Assembly: GCA_052327205.1 (NCBI GenBank) | Contig: CM126234.1 | Location: forward strand, 28,520,001-28,584,000 | Length of the DNA: 64,000 nucleotides | Direction of reading: 5' to 3' | Origin: Somniosus microcephalus | Taxonomy: Eukaryota | In this document: positions 11,672 through 61,020 of the stretch, one piece after another | Layout of the letters: every line of letters starts with the position of its first letter | How positions within the stretch are numbered: the stretch's first letter is position 1 | Program-made: the position numbers and the translations under genes | The notes under the pieces: model-generated | The model's input: only the letters and a program-made list of their open reading frames with translations | Told to the model about the DNA's origin: nothing | Database searches by the model: none

Positions 11672-12396
11672 CTAACTCACTTTGTGCTCTCCTCGGACAA
11701 TGTGCGAGGAGAATTCGTACCGATCCTGGCTGTGGTGGCCGCAGATGTTGCACTCAAAAGGGTCTCTGAATCCATGGCAACCCATGTGTATGGTAAACAT
11801 TACGTGGTCAAGAAAGAGAACCCGGCAGTGGTTACACTTATAAGCCTTAACTTGTTCTCCATCTTCATTTAAGACTCTTAGGACCTCTTTGGCTGAGCTT
11901 TGAGCTGCTTTGGCAGATGATGGAGGCTCCTGTGCCTTTGGGTCCTCTTTGGAATAGGCCGGGCTTTGCCTTGTGGCATAGTTACTAGGGAAAGTATGGG
12001 CATTCCTGTCTTCGTGGCTGCTTTCTGTATCTGTGGAATCATGACAACCATTGCTCGGAGACACTCCAAGCTCTACCAGTTGGTTTTTTGCTCTAGAATT
12101 CAGATGTTCTGGCACGTCTTCGTGACCTTCTGCTGCCTCTCGACTTCCCTGCGCCTCAGCTCGGCTGTGGATGGGATGTACATGGGAGTAGACAGCACTG
12201 ATCACTGGCGTGATCTCTGGCATGCAACTGGTCATGGGGAGCCTTGGAGGCCTCATTGCTTCTGTTCCTAGATAGGACAGCGCACTGCCCAAATTCTGGT
12301 CCATGGGGTGAGGAGCCATCATCTCTACATCCTTCTCAAAATTGGAGTTCATCTCAAAGTGAACATCAGATAGGTTGAGGCGCATGTGTTTATCAC
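11672..12396 (-). CDS. IKZF4: IKZF4/Eos terminal coding exon (725 nt CDS) with the two C-terminal dimerisation zinc fingers, TAG stop at 11672-11674
   Basis: Acceptor tttcttttcag|GT. ORF 11672..12385: YKCNHCRVLFLDHVMFTIHMGCHGFRDPFECNICGHHSQDRYEFSSHIVRGEHKVS, plus Eos-like SPSNGCHDSTDTES and SPAYSKEDPK. Confidence 0.97.
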
Positions 12397-13173
12397 CTGA
12401 AAAGAAAGGATTAGAGTTTAAAATCAGAAAACACAGAAAATAATCGGCAAGGAAGGGAGGTTAAAGGTAATTTAATTTATAATTCTGTTGGATCAATATA
12501 TTGTAAATAAAATCAGTACCAAATTTCACAATTCTGGTTTCAGGAATGGTAACAATTGAAACCGTCTGTTTTCAAATTCTATTACAATGTCAGCAGTGCA
12601 ATAGTTAAAACGAATTAAAAGAAAGCTGCTTTGATATTCATTCAGAAACACAAATGGTCAAGGCAACATCCTCTTGGCATTATCCTGACCCTGTCAAAGT
12701 TTAGGATCAAGGAGTGCCAAACTCTGGTTGGCCTGCATGTTTCACCATCACAATGAAGACATCAGGAAAAGCAAAGCACTTTGAAATCACAAGCTTACAA
12801 AAGGAGACCTAGGCTATTTACTGACCAGTGGAATATGGACCAGCCAAACTTAATTTAGAGTGGGTCAGGAATGTAACTTTAAACTAGCGCTGGAACAAAA
12901 ATAATTTAAACTATAAATAAAACCTAAAACAACCAGGGAGATCTCTCTCACTTCTACCTGCCAGTGATAGTAAACCTCAAAAACAAACAGGATTCCTCCC
13001 AATTTAGGAAGTCTCAAAAGTTCCTAATCGATAGCATTTTGTTTGGACAGTGGATGGTTGAAATACCTTTTCATTTGGACGTTGGATATTAAAATTGGGC
13101 CCTTTCCTCAGAGGACTGAATATAAAAATCTCCAATTTAGGGGTGGAATTAATCAAGACCAATTAAATACCAT

Positions 13174-19477: not shown

Positions 19478-19600
19478 TGCCACTGCTGGTTACAGGTCTC
19501 ACTATCCTTGGCTAACTGTGGCACTGCTAGGTATAGTCCTTGCTGCCCCAGGCTAACTGTGGCACTGCTGGTTACAGACCTTGCTGAGTAGATGGCTGTG
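19478..19600. repeat. Degenerate tandem repeat, about 3 x 41 bp, overlapping the ZF4 exon donor
   Basis: Units gccactgctggttacaggtctcactatccttggctaactgtg / gcactgctaggtatagtccttgctgccccaggctaactgtg / gcactgctggttacagaccttgctgagtagatggctgtg. Confidence 0.8.
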
Positions 19601-19729
19601 GGGGCTCAGCATTCAGACTCTGCAGGTAGTTGTGACAGCGTTCCTTGTGCTCCTCCAGCGAACTCTGCTGCTTGTAACTCCGCCCACAGTAATTACATTT
19701 ATAAGGTTTGCCGACAGTGGGAGAGGAGA
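19580..19729 (-). CDS. IKZF4: IKZF4/Eos coding exon (150 nt) with zinc finger 4 ([50 protein letters not shown])
   Basis: Not in the ORF track; read by hand. Acceptor tctctttctag|TC, donor CAAG|gtctgt, phase 1-1. The VSSPT linker before ZF4 is characteristic of Eos. Confidence 0.95.
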
Positions 19730-20509
19730 CTAGAAAGAGACACAAAATTAGCAGATAAGCATTAGGTCGTGTAAGAAGTCAGATTTCAAATCTATGATGC
19801 CGCATTGAATTGGGCACAATATATGAAATGAAAACAGAAAATGCTGGAAATATGCAACAGTTCAACAGTATCGGAGAAGAGACAGATTAACATTCCAAGC
19901 AGAAACCCTTCATCATTTCCTTTTTCCCCCCAGATTTCTAGCATTTTCAGTTTTTCATCTCATCTCAGACAACATTTTCAGTTCCAGCCCATCACCCTAA
20001 TACAGCCCCCTCAAGTCACAAGATTCAGATATGCACATCACAGGAATAGAAAAGGTGCCAGCTTCTTTCTTCACGGCGCTGACATTTCACAGGCTACTAA
20101 TGAGCAGCGTGTCAGAACAATTGATATTTTATAGAATTGTAATGCATGCGCATGGAAAACCACGTAGGAGCACCAAAGTAATTCAATGTGAAAAGCTGCA
20201 TCTCTGCAAATTAAAGTGACTTTTAATCCCTGTGCACAGTAACACAATGGACACCCCCTAAGATTCAAAATACACAAGGCTCTGATCTCGAGAAGTGTTT
20301 GCAATAAGTGGGAACAGACATGGGTTTGACAGCATCCTTTCCAAGACTGAAACAGGCAATGGTGAAATGGAACAGAATCTGGGGGCAACAGTATATTCAA
20401 CACTTAACATGTCAAAATACTGTCGAGCAGCAAAAAGTAGGTAGAATACATAATTATGTTACTAGGTCAGTTGAGTACAAGGCAGAAGACGTTATATCTT
20501 CAGAGAGAT

Positions 20510-26340: not shown

Positions 26341-26738
26341 TCCTTCCTGCCATTTTTCTCAGCATCCTGGCCTTTCCTTTTTAAAAAAAAATAAAATTAA
26401 CTACATTGCTAAATGAACTTTTAATAATAATCAAGGTAACTGATTTAGTTTCCACACAAATAAGCACAATCATGTAATTGGAGCCAAACCCCCCCCCCCC
26501 CCAATAAAAACACAACTTAATTTCTTGTCATGTTAGTTTACATAAAACAATGTATTCTGACGCACTGTGAGCAATGCCACAGGCGAGCCACCAGTAGATT
26601 TAATCAAATACTTTGAAGGTGATTGACAATGCAGATCTGAATGTGGACGAGCACACACTCTTAATCGTCTATGAAGTACACACGGCAGGAAAATTGTTAG
26701 TTTTAAATTTCAGCACACAAACGGGATTGGAAGGTGCA

Positions 26739-26850
26739 GTGGATTGGACACTGGCCTTTCACCACTGGGATCTGGAGTGGATTAGACACTGGCCTTCACC
26801 ACTGGGATCTGGAGTGGATTAGACACTGGCCTTCACCACTGGGATCTGGA
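26739..26850 (+). repeat. Tandem repeat 3 x 37 bp inside a tRNA-like SINE head
   Basis: Unit gtggattagacactggccttcaccactgggatctgga, between an A-box-like ggtgcagtgg and a B-box-like gatttaaatc. Confidence 0.9.
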
Positions 26851-27024
26851 TTTAAATCTAACCCAGACTGACAGGAGCAACATCTCCTTGTCTGCTGGGT
26901 GAGCAGTCCAATATGATAAGGGTTCGGCCAGTCTCGGTCCAGGTCCTAGAGGTTGTCTCCTTGACATGGTTTTCAAAACTGGGATGTCTACCAGTAGCTT
27001 GAGCGCAGGTGCTCTCAAACCCGC

Positions 27025-27306: not shown

Positions 27307-30300
27307 ATTACTCTGTATAGTTTAGAATCCTGCCTGATGTGGGTATAGAAATGCTACACAATGATGGAAAACACTTGGAAGAGCTGCTTAAACGAACTCT
27401 AGGTTTTCTATCCTGCACAGAATGTCTGGAATTTAGATGAAACTGGATATTTTCTTTTAATGCTTTGTTCACAAAGACCTTGTAGAAGATGAGTGAGGAG
27501 CTAAAAGGCTGTATAATGTCAAAAGAGATTAGCATTTGTTTTGAATAAGTGATACATATGAAATATAGAAGCCTTTAGTTACCAGCAAAGCTGGAAGCCA
27601 TCCTGCTTGAGAAATGAGAGGAAAGGTATTCCCCTCATTGCAAATAACTACAGGAATTCATGGCGACATTAGAAGTTAAAAGGTTGTATTTAACTAAAGC
27701 TAAAAGGGGGGGGGGGGGGGGGGGGAAAGAGAAAGAGGATTAAGGGGAAAAACTCCAAAGATGCCAGTGTCCTTGGATAATGCTCCTAGCTATTCAAATA
27801 TTGAACTGAAACACAATCCTGGAAATCAGACATCATGGCTTCAAATACTGGAGGTGGGAGCGATCGGGTCTTTTGTAGCCCAGAACAGCCAGTGATACCT
27901 TGTGTTTTTGTCGAGATTGACAAAGCTCAAAATATCTCAGAGCTGGTGAATAAAATGGAAAGTCTAAGATACCCGAATAGAAGACGGCATACACCTGAAA
28001 TAAGGCGACTAACAATCACAGAGTTCTCTGTATGTTGTAGATTCAAAGCTGAAAGCAGCAAACGTTCAGAATCAGAAACAAATGTGAATGAAAAGGAGCC
28101 ATTTGAAGCACTCAATAGATGGCTTTGGCTATCATTTTTACATGACTGGTGACTGCAGAGCGCGAAATAAAAAGTCTACCTCTAAAAATTGTTGATAAAG
28201 AGCTCTCTTTTAAAAAAAAGATACATTTTAGGAATGCCTACTGGTTTTCAGAGACTCTGAGCATATTAAAGCACATTTTTACGATGGAAAATGTACACGA
28301 TGCAAGCAATGCAATTTTGCACCTGCAAAATTATTTGCAATCCTATTTAACATTGGCACATGAATTCTAATATAACCAAGATCTTGCTCCCAAAGAACTG
28401 TTTTTTTTTTTTTATAAACATCCCCGTTTAAAGTGGTGCGATAGCTTGAGCATCAATGAACCACACCATGGAGTAGCTGGGCAAAGGTTCTTATTGTCAT
28501 CCCCTACAGAGTGAGCCTCAAACTCAACCATGGAGGGATGCTCAGTGTAGGCCAGGCACTTCCCCACAGGATGCACACAATCTCACCACCTCTTTAAAGT
28601 GAGGCACAGCTAAAACCACGTCGCATTGTGCAATCGGGACACAGCCGGTTTTAAACGCTTCAAAAACAAAATGGTAATGTGTGGGAAGCACAGTAGCTGC
28701 ATTTGCCATAATATCCAGCTAATGATCTGATACATACTGTCAAACCACTCTCTTACTAACCATCCCCACCCTGGACTGTTGATCAGTCTTTGTTAGCAAT
28801 AGGTTTCCTTTTTAAAGATTACAGCACTTCTGAACACAACCACCAAATTATGGCAGAAGAATATTTTGCCCATTCTGTAGTTTAATCCCTTCAGCAGCAC
28901 ACAGTTTATTTACACTGAAGTACTTATTAAAAAGGCACATATGGTACAAGTGTATCCTTAAAGGCTTTAACTGAAAGAAATTCTAAAAGACTTGACCAGC
29001 GGCAGTTTAAAAAGAAAAACTTAAAATATATGACGGCAATAACGCAACAAATGTAGATTGAGATAGCACGGTTGCTTCATAGAATGCTCCAGCATCGAAA
29101 CAGACCGTTGGGTCCATCAAGTCTGTGCCAGTGATTCTGGCAATTTACATAAATTATAAACTGGTTTGCTGTGTGAATGCTACAATTCTATAAAGTTTCA
29201 TGTTGTTTGAAGAAGCTCCAATCTCCTCTCTGCCAAATTCCTAGGAGATTTGGTCTCGCTGGAGTTGGTTAAAAATTTGTTATTGTGGCAGTGGGAGCAC
29301 AATTGGCCTCTGTCTCTAGTGAAAGGAAGAAGGAAAATAACAGCCACGGCCTCGATCACTGATTACTATCCAGTAAGCCCCACTGAAAACGTGCATGTTG
29401 ACATCTGCGAAGGGCAGGATCAGGCTCAGCTGTGATGCCACTCTGCTAAAACTCACTGTCCAATCTCACGTGAAGAATAGTCACTTGGGCAAGATACCAG
29501 AGAGGTGCCAGCCAGCTCTCAAGGATGTAAACCAGCATGAATCACCATCTTCAGGAAAGTAAGGGGAAAGAACTGGGAAGGAAGGGTGGAAGAAAGTAAA
29601 GAACCTTGAAATAAACAGTTTAAAAGTAATTTAACAATTTCAAATTTATAATCTTAAACCAGGAGTTCCCAAAAGCCACAAATGACCAAACTAAGGGGGT
29701 GAGCAAGAGATGCTGACAAAACATCTTCAATTAGTAGATACAACAGGTCTAGTTACCAGTGAATGAGTACAAGGAATCCTAATACTGATCAGAACATAAC
29801 TTACAATCTTGTAGTCACAGTGAAAGAGCATTCCTCCAAGATGAATAGATTACAGAGTCTTTCTGAATTTTCAGCACCTTCTGACACTGTGATCTTTGGA
29901 GCATCTACTGCGTGCTGTGAAACTGGTATTACAGTCAGGCAATGGTTTACAGACAGTCGGCCAGACACGTAGCACAGCACACAAAAGGCAGAAAGTAGGA
30001 TGTAGTAAAAAAAACACAAATTTTACCAGTTAAGGTTTCATGATCACAAACTCGCTTCAGCAACATCTGCAGGACACGTTAGTCTTGTTTAGTTTTCCTC
30101 TCGATTGCTAACCTTTCACTAGTATTGCTTCCCCTATCGGTAAACCAGCTTTATACCACAAGTTAGCCATGGAAAAAAATATGCTTACCTCACATGTAGA
30201 AAAAAAAACGAATCCACTGTCGCATTTGCATATTGTGTTGCGACTGGAAACAGTGACATCACCCATTCCACCTGTCTGCCATATTGGTTCTAAACAGTTT

Positions 30301-30723
30301 AAACATGAAAACGCATGCTTGTGGTGCGAATGGCACATTGAATAGGGTCCGATATGGGTTTAGGTGAGAACAGTTGTGGAGAAAGCGGATATAATTAACT
30401 CATAAGTTAGATCTGTCAGGTCTTGCTCAGTCATATGCCGATTTAAAACGGTAACCTATTTTAATGCATCTCACTTTGAAAAATAATCATTCCATATATT
30501 TAAGCAAGTTTGCAACTGATCTCTCTCTATTAGCAGCCCACTCCTTACGTTTTCCCCAATACCAGCAGGTCTTCATACATATTAGAACAATGGACACTGG
30601 TGAGTCACTTTAAATTACAGCCTTCTAATCAAGTTCATCTATTATAAGGTACAAGAGAGAAGCTAAAAGTAATTTGCACCAGTCACTAAAGAGTGCGGCC
30701 TTGACATTACTTACAAGGTACCA

Positions 30724-30870
30724 GTGCCAATAGTTTCCTTTGTGCTTTAATTTTAATGAATTTGTAGACATATCTACAAACACTGCATTTATGGATTTGT
30801 TAAGAGTAATGCAGAGTGGAAAATACCTTCATAGACCTTTTTATGCTTCGGCCATGGTCTATATAGAAAC
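30724..30870 (+). repeat. Left copy of a 147-bp direct duplication flanking the hAT element
   Basis: gtgccaatagtttcc...tctatatagaaac, about 95% identical to 35618-35763. Confidence 0.95.
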
Positions 30871-31301
30871 TCGGGTTGCGAAGGGGTGGAAAGTTTCCGG
30901 TAAATTTCCCACGGGAAGTTTAGCCCAAAAAAGCACATGCTAGCATAATATTGTTTTTTTTTTTGTATTTCTTTCATTTTTTTTCCTCCCACAGGTCATC
31001 TCTTAAAATTACTAAGAGATGGAATCTTAATTATTAAGGAATTTCTTAATCAATATATGTTTCTCTTCTTGGCTTGTTTTAATAATTACAAGTTTTGTGT
31101 GACTGTAAACAAATGTGTCCTGATTGGTTGGATGAGTGGGTGAGCGATTAGCTCCCTCTATTGGTGATGTAGTGTCGTGTGTGCACAGGTCATGCTTCCA
31201 TCACATGGAGCATCAGGAAAAATGTACTCGCCCTGTTGCAATCGTGCTGATCGACCGCAGTTCGACACAGACGAATGCCCTTTATTTCTTTGCATAGAAC
31301 A

Positions 31302-34300
31302 ATGCCACGTTTACTGTCGGATGTGTGGAAGCATTTTACCGCAGGCATTAAAAATGGAAAGACTGTGTACATGTGCAAACACTGTACAAAGCCATATGTA
31401 AAGAATGCCACAAAGATGCAACAACTTCACTCAAAGCTCACAGCAGTCAGCCCAGAGTTCCTCTGCTTCCATTCAAGAAGATGATGGTTCACATCGGGGG
31501 AAGGCCGATTTTAATATGATAAGGCAGGATCTGGCCAAAGTGGACTGGGAGCAGCTACTTATAGGAAAATCCACATCAAAACAGTGGGAGACTTTCAGAA
31601 GGGAAATAGAGAGAGTACAACGCCAACATGTTCCTGTAAAGGTCAAGGGTGGGACCAACAAGCAAAGGGAACCTTGGATGACAAGGGATATACAAAAATG
31701 CATTAGGAATAAAAGGGGGGCTTTTGGCAGTTACAAAAGACTAAAGACGGAAGAAGCCCTAGAGGAGTATAAAAAGTGCAGGGGCGTACTTAAAAAAGAA
31801 ATTAGGAGGGCGAGGAGGGGCCATGAAATAACACTGGCGAGCAAAATAAAGGAAAATCCTAAGATGTTTTATAAGTATATTAAGGGCAAAAAAATAACCA
31901 GGGAAAGGGTAGGGCCCATTAGGGACCAAAGTGGCAATCTGTGTGTAGAGCCAGATGAGGTAGGTGGGGTTTTAAATGAATTTTTTGCATCTGTGTTCAC
32001 TATGGAGAAAGAAGATGCAGACATAGAAATCGGGCAAGGGGACTGTGACATACTTGAACATATTAGCATCGAGAGGGAGGAGGTGCTAGCGGTTTTAGCA
32101 GGCCAAAAAGTGGATAAATCCCCAGGCCCGGACGAGATGTATCCCAGGCTGCTGTGGGAGGCAAAGGAGGAGGTTGCAGGGGCTCTGACACAAATTTTCA
32201 GAACCTCTCTGGCCACAGGGGATGTACCAGAGGACTGGAGAACAGCTAACGTAGTACCATTATTCAAGAAGGGTAGCAGGGATAAACCAGGGAATTACAG
32301 GCCAGTGAGCCTAACATCTGTGGTAGGGAAATTATTGGAAAAAATTCTGAGGGACAAAATTAGTCTCCACTTGGAGAGGCAAGGATTAATCGGGGATAGT
32401 CAGCATGGCTTTGTCAAGGGTAAATCATGTCTGACAAATCTGATTGAATTTTTCGAGGGGGTGACTAGGGGGGTGGATGAGGGAAATGCTGTGGATGTGG
32501 TTTACATGGACTTCAGTAAAGCTTTTGACAAAGTCCCGCATAGGAGACTGGTCAAGAAGGTAAGAGCCCATGGGATCCAGGGTGCCTTGGCGCGTTGGAT
32601 CCTAAACTGGCTGAGTGGCAGGAGGCAGAGGGTGATGGTCGAAGGTTGCTTTTGTGACTGGAAGCCTGTGTCCAGTGGGGTACCTCACGGTGCTGGGTCC
32701 CTTGTTGTTTGTGATCTACATAAATGATTTGGATGAGAATGTAAAAGGTATGATCAGTAAGTTCGCAGATGACACGAAAATTGGTGGGGTGGTAAATTGC
32801 GAGGAGGAAAGCCTCAGGCTACAGGACGATATAAACGGGTTGGTCAGATGGGCGGAAAAGTGGCAAATGGAATTTAACCCTGAAAAGTGCGAGGTGATGC
32901 ATTTTGGACGGACAAATAAGGCAAGGGAATACACAATGAGTGGTAGGACCCTAGGAAGTACAGAGGGTCAGAGGGACCTTGGTGTACATGTACATAGATC
33001 CCTGAAGGCAGCGGAACAGGTAGATAAGGTGGTTAAAAAGGCATATGGGATACTTGCCTTCATTAGCCGAGGCATAGAATATAAGAGCAGGGAGGTTAGG
33101 ATGGAGCTGTACAAAACGCTGGTGAGGCCACAGCTGGAGTACTGTGTGCAGTTCTGGTCGCCTCACTATAGGAAGGATGTGATTGCTTTGGAGAGGGTGC
33201 AGAGAAGATTCACCAGGATGTTACCTGGGATGGAGCGCCTCAGCTATGAAGAGAGGCTGGACAGGCTGGGGTTGTTTTCCTTGGAGCAAAGAAGGCTGAG
33301 GGGGGACCTGATTGAGGTGTACAAAATGATGAGGGGCATAGATAGGGTAGATAAAGAGGAACTTTTCCCCTTAGTAGGGGGGTCAATAACAAGGGGGCAT
33401 AGATTCAGGGCAAGGGGCAGGAGATTTAGAGGGGATTTGAGGAGGAACTTCTTCACCCAGAGGGTGGTTGGAATGTGGAACTCAATGCCTGAAAGGGTGG
33501 TAGAGGCAGGAACCCTCACAACATTCAAGAAGCATTTGGATGAGCACTTGAAATGCCATTGCATACAAGGCTATGGACCAAATGCTGGAAAATGGGATTA
33601 GACTGGACAGGGATGGATGGGCGGCGCAGACACGATGGGCCGAAGGGCCTCTTTCTGTGCTGTAAAACTCTATGACTCCTCTATGACACATTCAGCATCA
33701 GGCTCCTTATCATCAGCAACTCCTGGCCCACTTGGAAGGTTCTTTGATACGATGGATAACCATAGCCAGAAGAATGCAGATGAGTGCCTTGCTCGAGCTG
33801 TATATGCGACAGGCTCACCCCTCATGCTCACAGCCAATGTGTACTGGAAGAGATTTTTCAATGTTATTCGCCCTGCATACTGTCCTCCCACCAGACATGC
33901 TTGGTCTACTTATTTGCTGGAGACCGAGTATAACAGAGTCCAAGGAAACGATAGAGATGGCAGACTGTGTTGCAGTTATCTCAGATGGGTGGTCAAATGT
34001 ACGAGGGGAGGGCATCATAAACTACATCGTCTCCACTCCTCTCCCAGTGTTCTTCAAGAGCACAGACACGAAGGACAACAGACACACAGGCACATACATT
34101 GCTGATGAGCTGAAAGCGGTCGTCAACGATCTTGGATCACAAAAGGTCTTTGCAGTAGTTACTGACAATGCTGCGAATATGAAGGCTGCTTGGGCTCAAG
34201 TGGAGGAGGCGTACCCTCATTGGGTCTATTGGGTGCGCAGCTCATGGGCTCAACCTGCTCCTCAAGGACATCATGGGTTTGAGAACCATGGAAACACTGT

Positions 34301-35279
34301 ACAAGAGAGCCAAGCAAGTTGTTAAGTATGTCAGCGGAAAACAGGTAGTTGCAGCAACCTATAACTCCAAGCAAATGACAAAGAACAAGAACACCACACT
34401 GAAGCTGCCCAGCAACACTAGATGGGGTGGCAGTGTCATAACGTACAACAGCCTTCTGGAGGGTAAGGAGTCGCTGCAAGAAATGGCAATATCCCAGTCT
34501 GGGGATATGGAAACCACCATCAAGAAAATACTGCTGAATGATGTGTTTTGGGAGAGAGTGGTTAGCAGCCTTAAACTACTCTCACCAGTAGCATCTGCAA
34601 TTGCTCAGATTGAAGGAGATGACGCTGTCTCGTCAGATGTTCTCAGGCTTTTTGCTGATTTAAAAGAACAATTCAGCATTGCCCTACCCACATCCCTGCT
34701 GCTCAAAGCAGAGGAGAAGGCAATTGTTCAATTCATACAGACGTGTCAAGAATTTTGTGTCAAGCCGATTCATGCTGCAGCATACATGCTGGACCCAAAG
34801 CATGTTGGGAGACCAATACTTTCCGGAGAACAGATCAACAGCGCTTACAGTGTGATTCTACCCTCTCACACCATCTCAATCTGGATGTGGGCAAAGTTCT
34901 GGGAAGTCTGGCAAAGTTCTCTACCAAGCAAGGTCTTTGGAATGGGGATGGGATATGGGAATCATGCAAGCATATCAGTGCACATACCTGGTGGAAGGGA
35001 CTTTGTGCATCTGAGGCCCTGTCACCTATTGCATCGGTGATGCTCCAAATCCCACCTTCATCAGCGGCCTCTGAACGAAACTGGTCACTTTTTGGGAATA
35101 CGCATACAAAGGTGCGCAACAGGCTGACTAACAAGAGAGTGGAGAAACTGGTGGCTATCCGGGCGAACCTACAACTTATTGAGCCAGATACAGAAGTGTC
35201 CACCACACAGCTAGACAGTGACACAGAGGAGGAAATGGACACGTCAGAGCCAGAGTCAGAGAATCAGGAGGAGCAATGA
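31302..35279 (+). pseudogene. hAT transposase pseudogene, split by the CR1 insertion and several frameshifts
   Basis: MPRLLSDVWKHF...CKHCTKPYVKNATKM (BED finger); ISDGWSN, VVTDNAANM, GCAAH, NTRW, HAAAYMLDPK, WW, PPSSAASERNWS...RNRL spread over ORFs 31275, 33617, 33732, 34273 and 34743. Confidence 0.92.
31495..33686 (+). mobile_element. 5'-truncated CR1 LINE (2.2 kb of ORF2: RT domain and C-terminus, plus 3'UTR) nested in the hAT transposase
   Basis: ORFs 31405..32727 and 32654..33601: KSPGPD, PGNYRPVSLTS, QHGF, DFSKAFD, FADD, RPQLEYCVQFW, WNSMP. One frameshift in the GVPQG motif near 32688; ctctatga tail; cacat duplicated at 31490-31494 and 33687-33691. Confidence 0.96.
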
Positions 35280-35617
35280 TGAGTAGAAGACTCCGAAGAC
35301 TCATGAGTAGAAGACTCAAAAGTAGAAGACTCAAAAGGGACAAAATACAGGCTAAATAAGCTGACGCTCTTTTTATTTTATTTTAGATGGGTCTTTTTTG
35401 TGGGGGTTCAATAAAGTTCAAAGTTATAACCTAAATAAAGTTTTGAAAGCCTGTTTTTATTTGTATGGAACAGTATGTCTATTTTGATGACAAAGATAAT
35501 ATAAGGGTCAGAGACAAAAACCATCAGTGTGCAAAACAACTCAAAATTCCCATAAATTTCCGAAAATTCCCATGGAAAGTTTCCTCTTTTAAAAATTCCC
35601 GGAATTTTGCAACCCTA

Positions 35618-35763
35618 GTGCCAATAGTTTCCTTTGTGCTTTAATTTTAATGAATTTGTAGACATATCGACAAACACTGCATTTATGGATTTGTTAAGAA
35701 TAATGCAGAGTGGAAAATAACTCGATAGACCTTTTATGCTTTGGCCATGGTCTATATAGAAAC
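35618..35763 (+). repeat. Right copy of the 147-bp direct duplication flanking the hAT element
   Basis: Begins immediately after the right TIR and matches 30724-30870. Confidence 0.95.
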
Positions 35764-35831
35764 CATGTGCAATGGCAAATTGGGGACATTTCAGACTTGG
35801 AACTTTTAAGTGCATAGTTACAGTTTATGTT

Positions 35832-36622
35832 TGATAGAAACATAGAAGATAGGAGCAGGAGTAGGCCATTCGGCCCCTCGAGCCTGCTCCGCCATTCAAT
35901 GCGATCATGGCTGATCATCCAAATACAGTACCCGGTACCTGCTTTCTCCCCATACCCCTTGATCCCTTTAGCCTTACGAAATATATCCAACTCCTTCTCA
36001 AATATATTTAATGAATTGGCCTCTACTGCCTTCTGTGGTAGAGAATTCCACAGGTTCACCACTCTCTAGGTGAAGAAATTCCTCCTCATTTCTGTCCTAA
36101 ATGGCTTACCCCTTATCCTTAGACTGTGACCCCTGGTTCTGGACTCCCCAACCATCGGGAACATCCTTCCTGCATCTAGTCTGTCCAGTCCTGTCAGAAT
36201 TTTATAAGTTTCAATAAGATCCCCTCTCATTCTTCTAAACTCCAGTGAGTACAAGCCCAATCGTCCCAATCTCTCCTCATACGTCATTCCTGCCATCCCA
36301 GATATCAGCCTGGTGAATCTTCGTTGAACTCCTTCCATGGCAAGAACATCCTTCCTCAGATAAAGCGACCAAAACTGCACACAATACTCAAGATGTGGTC
36401 TCACCAAGGCCCTGTACAACTGCAGCAAGACATCCTTGTTTCTGTACTCAAACCCTCTCGCTACGAAGGCCAACATACCATTTGCCTTCTTAACCACCTG
36501 CTGCACCTGCATGCTTACCTTCAGCGACTGGTGCACAAGGACACCTAGGTCTCGTTGCACTTCCCCTTCTCCCAATCTATTGCCATTCAGATAATAATCT
36601 GCCTTCCTGTTTTTGCCACCAA
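35832..36622 (-). mobile_element. CR1 LINE 3' fragment (a different subfamily from the nested copy)
   Basis: ORFs 36066..36575 and 35694..36062 (RDLGVLV, RPHLEYCVQFW, LWNSLP); 3'UTR ggctcgaagggccgaatggcctactcctgctcct with a ctatgttt tail. Confidence 0.93.
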
Positions 36623-37740
36623 TGATGAAAGTACCTCTCTGTTTAATGGCAATATATAATACAAGAGGGCGGACTGAAGCTGGATTTTTTTTTTTAATAG
36701 TAGTGTAGTCAATGGCTTCTGCAGTCTACTGACAGCAGCGCAGAAAGATATTTGCAGGAGGGAATAAAAAGGCATTTGTGGCATTACTGCAGGTTTACAG
36801 AGAAATAATTTTGAATGCAAGTGAATCATAGATGGAACAAATTCTTTTTGTAACCTTTGCTTCATTGCAGGAAAATAACTAAGTGGCTGTTACAGTTTTA
36901 GTCTTCTCTCATACTCTAGAGCAAAGGCCTCTATCTCTACAAACTCTATGACTTTATATACCCAATACCTGATAATTTAACATGACCCAAAGGTCAAACA
37001 GAAACACTTGTTGCTGTAATTAGGTCACTGGATTGTTACAGACCTTCTTGTGTTCTTTTAGCCTTTGGATAGTGAAAGAACAAACACTCTATCAAGACTG
37101 TGGGACTTAATCTATAAAGTATACAAAAGAGATTTATTCGAAGTACAAAGTAGCAGAGCCAAAACAGAAGATTACACTTGATTACAGAACTTTTACCCTC
37201 TACCTCCTTGGGTACAGAAATAATGAGATGTGACCCTTCACGTCACTTTCTTACTGCAACTACACCTGGACCAACACCTATGACAATTTATACTTGAGGT
37301 TTTGTCTTAAGCACTGAGTATTTCAGTATTTGTCCTTCTCGCCCAACGAATGCAGAACTAAAAAACCGGCAGCATGCTGCTTGAGATATACCTCTTGTTT
37401 AAAATTAGTATACAGGAATTCAAATGAGGTTATCTCCCAGTAAGAGTAACCAAATTTAAAGCAATAAGCCATAACTCAATCAAAAATATATAAACTTGAT
37501 TTGAATTGATAGAACTCCTCTCACTATTAAAAAATTGTTTTAAAGCAAAAGGAAAAATTTAATTCAAACAATTGACCAAACACCACAATGGTCTAATATT
37601 ATCTTGTGATCAAACTTACACAGTTCAAGAGTTAAATATAATGCACAAATCAAATCTCCAGAGATAAAATAGTGAACGCTGTGTAAAATGTTACCATCTG
37701 GATAGAGGAATTTACAGTTGAAGTGTTGCAGTACCAAATC

Positions 37741-40894: not shown

Positions 40895-41062
40895 CTGCAT
40901 GTGTTCGGAGGTGTCCGCTGAGTGCATCCCTTCTCCGACAGGCATAATTACAGAACGGACATTTAAACGGCTTCTCCCCAGAGTGTAATTTGATGTGCCG
41001 CAGGAGGTTTCCCTTCTGTGTGAACGAGGCTCCACACTGGTTACAATGGAAGGGGCGTTCAC
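40895..41062 (-). CDS. IKZF4: IKZF4/Eos coding exon (168 nt) with zinc fingers 2 and 3 ([56 protein letters not shown])
   Basis: Acceptor tcttcctcag|GT, donor GCAG|gttggt. Translated by hand (the ORF track shows another frame). Near-invariant Ikaros-family ZF2-ZF3. Confidence 0.97.
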
Positions 41063-41314
41063 CTGAGGAAGAAAGATAGGCAGAAAGGTCAAAGCGCGAG
41101 GAAGAGAAAAAAAAAAATAGACTTTAAAAAAAAAAATCAGCTTTTCGACATAACATCTTTGTGTTCATTAAGATGAAGGATGACCATGCTGGAAAACAAA
41201 GGATTTTCCAATTTCTGGAATTCAAAGTGATGTACAGGTCATACTTCATTTGGAACGCAACTGACGGTTTGAAACTTGTTCATTTGAACAAGTAACGATA
41301 GTAAACAAAATAAA

Positions 41315-43086: not shown

Positions 43087-43347
43087 CAGTGTGGCTCCTC
43101 TTATGTACCATAAGAACATTCGGTCCGATGCAGACCATTCCGCATAGATCACACTTCAGTTTTCCATTAGGAAGGCGAATCCCTCCAGGAGAATGAGGTC
43201 CCTGCCCCGTGCCCTCACAGAATCCTAGCGGGTCCGACAAAGACTCATCCGCAATGACTGCTTCATCTTTATCACTAGCGCCATCCTCCTGTGCCAGAAG
43301 CCTCCCTGCCTCTTCATCGCTGTACATCTCAACCTTGATGGAGTTGG
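43087..43347 (-). CDS. IKZF4: IKZF4/Eos coding exon (261 nt) with zinc finger 1 ([13 protein letters not shown]...[33 protein letters not shown])
   Basis: Acceptor atttgcag|CC, donor ACTG|gtaagt, phase 1-1. Contained in ORF 42938..43327. Canonical Ikaros-family ZF1. Confidence 0.97.
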
Positions 43348-44156
43348 CTGCAAATGAACATCAGAAATGTCAGATGGAGCCATAAGACGACAGGGCTAGA
43401 CACCAGGTACGGGCGCTGTTCAAGACGGGCCAGCTGGCAACTAGTGTGCAGCAACCAAATTTTGTGAACCCTCATGGAGTACCCTTAGCCAAACATTTGT
43501 AAGTTTGAAGCAAGAGAGGAGCCAGCATTAGAGGACCTGTGCCAAACCTCAACTGGGAGATTATTGCGTACAGAAAAGGTGGGGGGGGGGGGGGGGGAAT
43601 CCAATTCTACAGCACTGTTGTCCTTCAGCTTATGAGCACACAATGAACATACATATATAAATAAAAACACAAGCACACAAAAACACACACACGCCATTTT
43701 ATTCATCCATGTAACTGCAAATAAGTAATTCTTCGGCAACATTTGATGATACGATAGCAGAGCTAGAAGACGTCTCCCTAGAATGAAGCAATAATTGGGA
43801 TAAAAGGGAGGTGAAAGCTCCACTCAAAGAACACAGTTTGGAAATAGACAGAATTGGACTCTTAAGTAATGAACAAGAACTATCAAAGGTAAATGATAGG
43901 ATGATAATGACTTGGAGTAGCAGACAAAAAAAAACTGTGGCATGGCTAAGGCAGCAGAAGCATTTGGAAAGGAAGAGAGCACTCGCTGAGATAAAGAGAA
44001 GACTTGGTATAAGTGACAGGACAAAGAAAAATATACACTACAGTTAAAATGGAGCCTCCTGTAACCACTGTGAAACAACCCACCCAACAGCTTACCAGTG
44101 AACACGGAGCATGAATTTTTCCACAACCACAATCGATAATGAGTGAATGTAACAGG

Positions 44157-44404
44157 TAGGGTTGCAAAGGGGTGGAAAGTTTCCGGTAAATTTCCGGACA
44201 TTTTCCACGGGAAGTTTAGCTTGGGAATTTTGCCCAAAAAAGCACATGCTAGCATAATATTGTTTTTTTTGTATTTCTTTCTTTTTTTTTTTTCCCCACA
44301 GGTCCTCTCTTAAAATTACTAACAGAGATGGAATCTTAATTATTAAGGAATTTCTTAATCAATATATGTTTATCTTCTTACTTGGCTTGTTTTAATAATT
44401 ACAA
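44157..44404 (+). mobile_element. Isolated left end (248 bp) of the same hAT family
   Basis: tagggttgcaaaggggtggaaagtttccgg...tttaataattacaa aligns to 30871-31091; preceded by the 8-mer gtaacagg (44149-44156). Confidence 0.95.
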
Positions 44405-44637
44405 AACTATAAATAGTACTGTACTGAAAATGTAGAAATTAGACAAAATACTTTGAACGCTGGAAGGTAGCAAACCTTGTGTGACTCTCCTCTCCCTTTT
44501 AAATTACATTACCTGTTACTAACAGGTAATGTAATTTAAAAGGGAGAGGAGAGTCACACAAGGTTTGCTACCTTCCAGCGTTCAAAGTATTTTGTCTAAT
44601 TTCTACATTTTCAGTACAGTACTATTTATAGTTTTGT
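44401..44637. repeat. Perfect palindrome: 118-bp arms, single-base centre (C44519)
   Basis: 44401-44518 is the exact reverse complement of 44520-44637, checked base by base. Confidence 0.98.
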
Positions 44638-58936: not shown

Positions 58937-59298
58937 ACAGAAATCACAGAAATCACAGAAACCCCACAGTGCAGATAGAGGCCATTTCGGCCCATCGAGC
59001 CTGCACCGACACATATCCCACCCGATCCCCGTAACCCCTACACCAACACATATCCCACCCTATCCCCGTAACCCCACGCATTTAATCCCCCTAACACTAA
59101 GGGTCAATTTATCATAGCCAATCAACCTAACCCGCACATCTTTGGACTGTGGGAGGAAACCGGAGCACCCGGAGGAAACCCACGCAAACACGGGGAGAAT
59201 GTGCAAACTCCACACAGAGAGTCACCCGAGGCCGGATTCGAACCCGGGTCTCTGGCGCTGTGAGGCAACTGTGCTAACCACTATGCCACCGTGCTACC
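58937..59298 (-). mobile_element. V-SINE (HE1-like elasmobranch SINE) with CR1-type tail
   Basis: tRNA head ggtagcacggtggcatagtggttagc...gggttcgaatcc; V-domain tgtgtggagtttgcacattctccccgtgtttgcgtgggtttcctccgggtgctccggtttcctcccac; tail gatgggccgaaatggcct...(tttctgtga)n; ~37-bp internal duplication at 59009-59075. Confidence 0.9.
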
Positions 59299-59505: not shown

Positions 59506-60594
59506 TAGATACCCTGCTAGATAGCATTCTATGGATGGCAGTCACCCTCTGCTACCTTTGTAGAAGTGCTAATTCCTCATGTGTGAGCCTGAACAATGGG
59601 TGTTGGCAGGCTAATCACTCACAGCCAAGCCCAATTCGGTCTTCAACTGACCATACGCATACAAACACTTCCCAACAGAGGTCACTGTATAGCAATCTGG
59701 GGTAAGAACCCTGGCTGATTTTTGTTCCTCTACGTGGCCAAGAGGTTGCAGTCACCAATTGTAGGACATCTACTGCCAACCCAACTGTGATCAGTTAACG
59801 CTGTAAAGACTGAGAATTAAATTCTGGAATCCACAGAAAACATGGTTCTAAACCGTAGAAATTGTAATAATTGATGGCAGCTGAAATAGATTACTCATAA
59901 TCCAAACTATTAAAAAGGTGAAAGAAAGGCAATATGGCAAATATATTGCCAGAAAAAGAGCTAGCACAGCCGAGAGACAAAAGAGCATTCCAATACCAGG
60001 AGCAGCAATGAAGTGCAATGTGCAAAATGGGAGCAGATAAAAGTCAGGGTCAGCACAAGTTGGAAATGTACAAACTGGAGGTAGAAGAGAATCACCCGAG
60101 GCGCTCAAAAGCTAAGAAATCTCAAACTTTTCCTAAACCTTCAACAGATTGACCATGACATTTTACGGCTCGTGTTAATGGAATGATGATGTAGAACAGT
60201 TGCAGCCTTGAGTAGGGCAGCCACCCATCAGTTTTCCAAGCTGCTTTAATGAAACTGTGCACATGCAGCCCGTTTCATGTCCAAAGCATTTCCAAGTACA
60301 GCCCCGTCCCTATCCAAGTTTTGGACAGTCAAAAGATAGCTGGGAAAGATGGTCGAGAAGAGAGTGAAATTTACCTCTCGGACATATCGCTGATTATTGT
60401 AGACAACAGTCTCTTGCAATAAATCATAATATTTGCTCTAGGTTCTGTTATCAAGAAGTTTAGTGCTTCTGCTAGGAAATCAGTTACGCCTCCATTACTG
60501 TAGGACTGGGAAAACACTGCACTGGATGTCAATCTGTAGCGTTCAAAACCACAAGGAAATTAGGTCAATTTCTCCCTAATCCTCCTCCATCACC

Positions 60595-61020
60595 CTAGAA
60601 CCAGAGGCCATTTGGCCCACTGTGTTTGTGCTAGCTCTTTGCTAGAGCAATCAAAATGTAATCCCAAAGTCCTATCCTCTCCCCATGGCCTTGCATCTTC
60701 TTTTACTTCAAGTATTTATCCAATTTTCCCCTAAAAGATACAATGGTTCTACCACAGCCACTCCCTGTGGCAAAGCATTTCTTGCTTCAGCAGCCCTCGA
60801 CGAGAAGAAATTTCTCCTAACCTCTCTCTTCTCTTCGTAATGATTTTAAATTGATGACGGTTTTCGAACCATGTATTCTGTGGATTCCAGAATTTAATTC
60901 TCAGTCTTTACAGAGTTCACTCCGACTCCCCAACCAGCGGAAATAGTCTTTTCCTATTCACTATCGTAATTTTAGAAATCTCTATTAAATTTCCTCTTGG
61001 CTTTCTCCGATCCAGTGGAA
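60595..61020 (-). mobile_element. Old CR1 3' fragment interrupted by a 64-bp foreign insert (approximate)
   Basis: gaggccatttggcccac...gagaagaaatttctcct...attttagaaatctctattaaat; insert at 60857-60920. Confidence 0.65.

Follow-up and report, generated by a model that had tools for sequence, protein, structure and literature searches.

How did a hAT transposon, a member of a superfamily whose insertions are flanked by 8-bp target-site duplications (TSDs), come to lie between two direct copies of a 147-bp host segment? The question is raised by a stretch of 64,000 nucleotides from Somniosus microcephalus (GenBank assembly GCA_052327205.1, contig CM126234.1, positions 28,520,001–28,584,000 of the forward strand), referred to below as the window; all coordinates are positions in it. 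The hAT element occupies positions 30871–35617, in an intron of an Ikaros-family zinc-finger gene. The analysis confirmed that the duplication is real and transposon-made. Hybrid-element (alternative) transposition is the explanation that we regard as somewhat probable and that accounts best for the locus.

The duplicated unit and its junctions

The features of the duplication are as follows.

30724–30870, plus strand: unit copy 1, a host segment of 147 bp adjoining the left terminal inverted repeat (TIR); single in the window besides copy 2; contigs of organisms A and E are continuous and single-depth up to 30849
30724–30731, plus strand: target 8-mer A (gtgccaat), in its empty state, without a visible footprint (sequence)
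30863–30870, plus strand: target 8-mer B (atagaaac), at the left junction; the same as the CR1 tail octamer at 35834 (sequence; loose contig ends)
30871–35617, plus strand: decayed hAT element of 4747 bp (2550 bp without an inserted CR1), TIR TAGGGTTGCAAA (alignment, TIR comparison)
35618–35763, plus strand: unit copy 2, 146 bp, adjoining the right TIR and continuing into the ancestral right flank (sequence)

The two copies are identical in 140 of 147 aligned columns (95.2%). The seven differing columns of the pairwise alignment comprise six substitutions, three of them clustered within five bases, and one single-base indel. Both copies touch the element without a spacer, the left end beginning at 30871 and the right TIR finishing at 35617, and one ambiguous base (a, 30723/35617) can be assigned to either side of the junction. 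The repeat of about 95% identity abutting both TIRs, reported in a preliminary description of the locus, is thus real, and so is the second feature noted there: the junction 8-mers, atagaaac on the left and gtgccaat on the right, are unlike (three of eight positions agree), yet each agrees with nTnnnnAn, which is the target preference of Hermes in the available excerpt of PMC10368747. This pattern fits 8.3% of the 8-mers in the window, and two matches would arise by chance with a probability of 0.7%, a post hoc figure. When the junctions were shifted by up to three bases, no common 3–11-mer appeared; this copy therefore lacks an ordinary TSD, the 8-bp duplication typical of the superfamily being absent from it.

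Exactly two unit copies and one element are present at the locus. At the outer unit edges (30723/30724 and 35763/35764), neither an element nor a visible footprint was seen. No third match to the unit was found in the window; the unit does not stand beside a second copy of the hAT family near 44 kb, and single-depth contigs traverse it in organisms A, D, and E. On these grounds, an LTR-like or dispersed repeat, which would have undermined the preliminary description, is rejected. The single-strand fold of copy 2 and its flank is ordinary overall (z −0.57).

The empty site in a related organism

Part of the left flank is contained in 11 public runs, four of which were aligned to positions 28500–37700. 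In organism A, one contig of 4058 nt aligns to 28500–30849 and to 36640–37426, with 85 letters between these segments. A site with one unit copy and without both the hAT and a CR1 fragment (35834–36622) is predicted to leave a gap of 108 letters or fewer, and a site with two copies a gap of 247–255. Since 85 letters have room for one unit only, organism A has neither the element nor the duplication. The single copy that the preliminary description expected at the orthologous empty site is thereby found, and the contrary case, a duplication in a species lacking the insertion, does not occur in organism A. The comparison shows that the duplication originated on the lineage that also carries the element.

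The flank of organism A differs from the window by 66 substitutions in 2350 bases (2.8%). Organism E, at 4.7% in the flank, is compatible with an empty site: its 2338-nt contig aligns up to 30849, and a further 238 letters follow without bridging the site. Among the best-supported flank differences of organism A, 34 in number, 17 are common to organism E, which would fit organism E as the outgroup and about 1.4% of change on the branch of the window. The unit copies diverge by 4.1% (confidence interval 1.5–8.7), against 2.8% allowed since the split from organism A (P = 0.23); these values are compatible with a duplication that arose early on the branch of the window.

In run X7 of organism C, one contig corresponds to 30723–30902, that is, to copy 1 and the left TIR, with 0 differences, and the neighbouring flank contig ends at 30752, as expected if the start of the unit has two different predecessors. 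The seven differences between the copies and this exact short-read contig over the left junction argue against an assembly artefact; the right junction lies outside the pieces listed, and X7 is possibly not independent of the assembly. Run X9 (organism D) contains a contig over 28944–30841 with six substitutions and 23 unaligned letters. It fits the left flank followed by a copy-2-type unit, either as a graph path via the shared first 51 bp or as a popped-out allele, and was not used as evidence.

Hybrid-element transposition as the proposed origin

Flush ends, different 8-mers, and a single-copy ancestor together indicate a distance of 139 bp between the targets to which the two ends were attached. 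According to the proposed mechanism, the junctions of the element with the chromosome, at 8-mers A and B, stem from two distinct transposase reactions. The first would most likely have been one ordinary insertion with an 8-bp TSD. After replication, the transposase would have brought together the left end of the copy on one chromatid and the right end of its sister copy, forming a hybrid element; only those two ends would have been cut and then inserted at a second nearby 8-mer, either in the homologue or in the sister arm that had been emptied. In one product, a single element would be flanked on each side by the 147 bp that begin with A and finish with B; the reciprocal product, an element with a deletion, would have been lost. 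We infer not only the hybrid-element step but also which of A and B came first and which chromatid served as the target.

Hybrid insertion is favoured because it lies one step from a single insertion. It is also supported by both junctions being flush, with no filler, loss, or microhomology beyond the one ambiguous base. A hybrid-element product is expected to show a single element, two direct copies, flush ends, and unlike target 8-mers, all of which are seen here, and to derive from a single-copy, element-free site such as that on the contig of organism A. The preliminary description had proposed two transposase-made junctions about 139 bp apart; alternative transposition is indeed the best reading of that distance, and both junctions may be transposase-made.

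This kind of mis-step is already known, having been described in flies and maize. Hybrid element insertion of P elements, with flanking duplications and deletions, was reportedly described by Gray et al. (1996) and by Preston, Sved and Engels (1996). P-element products share with the present locus one element between direct host copies, flush ends, and different 8-mers. Unlike them, the present case concerns the hAT superfamily and a natural vertebrate allele that is old and apparently fixed, not one produced in the laboratory, and the reciprocal deletion and the exchange of flanking markers are not visible here. The literature search returned fly, plant, and yeast cases and no natural vertebrate example, most subscription papers being outside its coverage.

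The accessible parts of PMC3744419 and PMC2775673 treat alternative transposition with the ends of two sister copies as established for P and for Ac/Ds. In maize, the former gives three cases among 7611 hAT insertions, two of the three with a middle element and one non-matching 8-mer. The case dhAT-Zm1 resembles the present locus in being a hAT with a short duplication (147/148 bp), in the unit end and unit start around the middle element, and in one non-matching 8-mer; the copies of the maize duplications are 93–99% identical. The maize duplications differ in that each repeat opens with its own element, the first with a full TSD, whereas one element is present here.

An apparently derived inverted stretch at site B

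30850–30862, plus strand: 13 bp, apparently derived, which repeat in inverted orientation, apart from two small gaps, the left 8-mer and the bases after copy 2 (contig ends of organisms A and E; arm alignment)

For both relatives, A and E, the alignment breaks off precisely at 30849, which leaves 21 bases up to the left junction. The preliminary description had overlooked that the last 13–21 bp of the unit differ from both relatives and that they form an inverted copy. Its centre is exactly on the left edge of the 8-mer atagaaac (regions 30850–30870 and 35743–35767), and the same palindrome definition, set post hoc, fits 3 of 63,940 window positions. Since the stretch is identical in both unit copies, it predates the duplication. 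This hints that B is the older, processed junction and A the second target.

Two readings fit the stretch. In one, all 21 bases are new, the gap in organism A is then exactly 85, and the 8-mer (equal to the CR1 tail octamer) was itself added. In the other, the 8-mer is ancestral and the 13 bases were templated in repair at an earlier insertion or excision, small indels completing the count. An odd-centred hAT footprint at site B was rejected, as no odd palindrome fits, and so was an excision footprint at site A, where none is visible. The CR1 3′ fragment at 35834–36622 (minus strand) lies 70 bp from copy 2, has tgat (four bases) at both ends, and is not in the bridging contig of organism A.

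A second aberrant copy at 44 kb

44157–44404, plus strand: 248 bp of left end, all that is present of a second family member, with gtaacagg before it at 44149–44156 (sequence)
44401–44637, no strand assigned: perfect palindrome of 118+1+118 bp, an inverted copy of the right flank, whose centre is the complement of the first TSD base

The right arm of the palindrome is the original right flank minus its first base, the central base is the complement of that base, and the palindrome is joined to the element stub via a microhomology of four bases (acaa). The left 8-mer gtaacagg recurs inverted at the palindrome centre, which implies an 8-bp TSD for the family. A flank hairpin centred on the first flank base, as formed by hAT elements, can be deduced from the sequence at one site, 44519. 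In the accessible part of PMC5873905, Ac/Ds hairpin footprints have as their centre the complement of the base that adjoins the transposon terminus. The 44-kb palindrome follows the same centring rule and shares the microhomology join with these P-nucleotide footprints; it differs from those given there in its arm of 118 bp, compared with a maximum of 20 nt in yeast and 3 nt in Candida, and in that the left element end stayed in place. An assembly fold-back would not be expected to follow the Ac/Ds rule; the palindrome is known from the assembly. Presumably, only the right end was cut, opening or copying of the hairpin took place at a point 118 bases away from the tip, and the greater part of the element disappeared. 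If so, this copy displays the family cutting one end with the other in place, which would be the same root fault as that proposed for the duplication.

The palindrome arms show 0 differences in 118 positions compared with 6 in 146 for the unit copies (Fisher p 0.035, or 0.13 if the three clustered changes are one event), so the palindrome may be younger than the duplication or may have been homogenised. Both oddities are consistent with a transposase that at times acts on one end independently of the other; these are two cases, chosen for their oddness. The preliminary description had stressed two aberrant products of one family in one gene. Both are present, flanking two exons (43.1 kb and 40.9 kb), but given the apparently very many copies of the family their presence 13 kb apart is less surprising than it seemed. 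One macro-transposition event for both oddities is disfavoured as highly improbable, since it needs extra steps and the ages may differ.

Weighing the explanations

Several points weigh against hybrid-element transposition. The agreement with nTnnnnAn extends to two of the three junction 8-mers of the family in the window; the third, gtaacagg, matches the T and not the A, and the argument from the Hermes/hobo-type preference cited in the preliminary description is a modest one. Among the rows listed for the four runs, neither a precursor allele (the element at A or B, with an ordinary TSD) nor a reciprocal deletion was found. The left TIR is mutated at base 2, and 23 subterminal bases are gone; if this damage is older than the event, the left end was possibly not joined by transposase. 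The hybrid model alone does not generate the inverted stretch at B, whose even centre contrasts with the odd centre of the Ac/hAT footprints given in the excerpt of PMC5873905. If the target was on the sister arm, repair must have left just one clean 8-mer at the donor site. Finally, the copy divergence of 4.1% is at the upper end of what the 2.8% since the split from organism A allows.

The left-end damage is also the starting point of a rival that we consider unlikely, although it deserves attention, namely one-ended or uncoupled integration. Here, the intact right end of an excised element attacks A, or the two ends attack opposite strands 147 nt apart instead of 8; replication and host repair then join or fill what remains, so that a single insertion yields a genuine 147-bp TSD. 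Such an event would agree with a left TIR that has a defect at base 2 and too few subterminal repeats, opposite a perfect right TIR, and likewise with the derived, inverted, repair-like sequence ending at the junction of site B and with the one-ended cutting presumed for the 44-kb copy. However, the TIR changes may equally well be later decay (the 5′ ends of the two family copies in the window differ at 7 of 218 positions), and the inverted stretch, being in both copies, did not arise at the joining step, except by copying. At the left junction, element and host meet flush, without terminal loss or microhomology with the downstream flank, and the inner consensus positions (A7 of A and T2 of B) match too, which this rival does not predict. 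Large host duplications can follow one-ended retroviral integration; the literature search, with most subscription papers outside its coverage, yielded no paper showing them.

Rather improbable, in our opinion, is unequal exchange by non-allelic homologous recombination, in which haplotypes with the element at A and at B (e.g., after a local hop to the homologue) recombine inside the element. It yields the same structure with two full transposase-made junctions, and it gains from the excerpt of PMC2775673, where hybrid insertion and ectopic recombination have near-identical outcomes that differ in element chimerism. It requires, though, that two insertions 139 bp apart segregated and that in each case the other site was empty and showed no footprint, which makes the “local hop plus unequal exchange” of the preliminary description the less economical of its two suggestions. 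Exchange between chromatids bearing both insertions would leave outer elements as well, according to the accessible part of PMC3744419, and none are present here; the lack of a precursor allele among the joints listed is a weak further point.

The length of the duplication suggests another reading, which we hold to be doubtful. The nucleosome core is about 147 bp long, and chromatin could guide the second strand transfer so that the end concerned lands one nucleosome away, or one transpososome could hit the entry and exit linkers of a nucleosome and generate a TSD of nucleosome length. Included in this reading, and just as doubtful, is a family that habitually uses its ends uncoupled. The basis is one site (147 bp) and one maize parallel (147/148 bp, one of three cases). 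The literature search, with most subscription papers outside its coverage, found no paper testing nucleosome-sized transposon duplications.

A maize-type tandem direct duplication with two elements, the outer one later excised cleanly, is very unlikely. The middle elements of dhAT-Zm1 and Zm13 do show the order unit–element–unit with one non-matching 8-mer; here, however, each repeat does not have its own initiating element with a full TSD at the first, the outer unit edges carry no element or footprint, and an extra precise excision would be required. An origin not involving transposase, whether by insertion into an older tandem duplication, by an LTR-like or dispersed repeat, or by an assembly artefact, is scarcely credible, and the older tandem duplication was rejected as a target because the 8-mers would then still match, whereas here three of eight positions do.

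The hAT element and its family

31302–35237, plus strand: transposase gene, interrupted by CR1 and frameshifted near 33940, 34220, and 34857 (Pfam, tblastn; 67–72% protein identity)
31490–33686, plus strand: 5′-truncated CR1-type long interspersed nuclear element (RVT_1) of 2.2 kb within the hAT, with cacat (five bases) on both sides (Pfam; joint 31489>33687)

The 12-bp TIR, in keeping with the hAT superfamily, is exact on the right and at 44157, whereas the left copy retains 10 of 12 positions (two mismatches) and has 10- and 13-bp subterminal gaps relative to the 44-kb copy. In the transposase, Pfam identified DUF659 (E 4.6e-20), Dimer_Tnp_hAT (E 2.4e-9), and zf-BED (E 0.0018, under its cut-off), and tblastn indicated collinearity with full-length relatives, so the domains are those of a hAT. 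Family copies without the CR1, with the joint 31489>33687, are present in four of four runs. The element gained the CR1 and the frameshifts later and is now dead. A tandem array of 15-bp units lies in its 3′ region, at 35295–35337.

The nearest proteins, among 80 hits from 2693 candidates, are 67–72% identical over the 206-aa query and are mostly teleost and unnamed. The teleost BED/DUF659 hATs (P0003, P0005 of Labeo rohita, P0006 of Salmo salar, and P0007) share this identity and the same domain order; they were compared with the window element at the protein level. Many percomorph fishes have a protein that is 40–47% identical and of near-constant length, about 597 aa (P0030–P0062 and others), which looks like a gene domesticated from this hAT lineage. 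A comparison of the transposase fragment with PDB gave zero matches.

Contig depth summed over the transposase in X7 is 150,000–250,000 compared with about 21 in the flanks; this rough depth is not a copy number, and it suggests that the family has very many copies per genome. In organism A, the summed depth is about a tenth of that in C, D, and E, although organism A is closer than E in the flanks; its run was read to 55% only, so the lower depth may be an artefact or may reflect uneven amplification. TIR-pattern searches for further copies gave no matches or single ones (L003, L004) that are confined to the pattern and at chance level. The protein-based search for further loci found none among 14 candidates in viral contigs and none among 29 in prokaryote genomes; in metagenomes, two of 214 candidates were retained, both 42% identical and without the TIR motif. 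One contig of the metagenome collection (L001, 845–2600) encodes a distant transposase relative (42% to the query) and is without the searched TIR motif.

The host gene and other features of the window

11675–12400, 19580–19730, 40896–41063, and ~43090–43200, minus strand: Ikaros-family exons (Helios is the best single-stretch PDB match)

The host gene, on the minus strand, belongs to the Ikaros zinc-finger family and is that of a jawed vertebrate; the hAT is in the intron that separates the exons at 40.9 kb and 19.6 kb. The repeats of the region may be of the kind seen in cartilaginous fishes. The exon next to the Helios-matching stretch has a wording that we take to be Eos-like. Inverted repeats of 60 bp (93%), 1009 bp apart, at 59793–60921 are possibly the ends of a non-autonomous DNA transposon. 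Short tandem arrays with a 37-bp unit were found at 26720–26868 and 59000–59073.

Significance of the duplication

As a single locus, the duplication carries little weight: it and the 44-kb palindrome are both intronic, and no effect on the Ikaros-family gene is claimed. With its orthologous empty site, it is a clean natural case in which a cut-and-paste transposon has duplicated host DNA in the germ line of a vertebrate. Such copies go unnoticed in annotation pipelines that insist on a short TSD. Should the family number thousands of copies, one could measure directly how often alternative transposition occurs in vertebrates and what sizes of duplication it generates; the maize rate estimate rested on 3 cases in 7611 insertions. 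If the nucleosome reading is true, duplication lengths would peak near 150–200 bp and its multiples, together with flank hairpins opened more than 100 bp from the tip, and species with very many copies would hold a natural record of such events.

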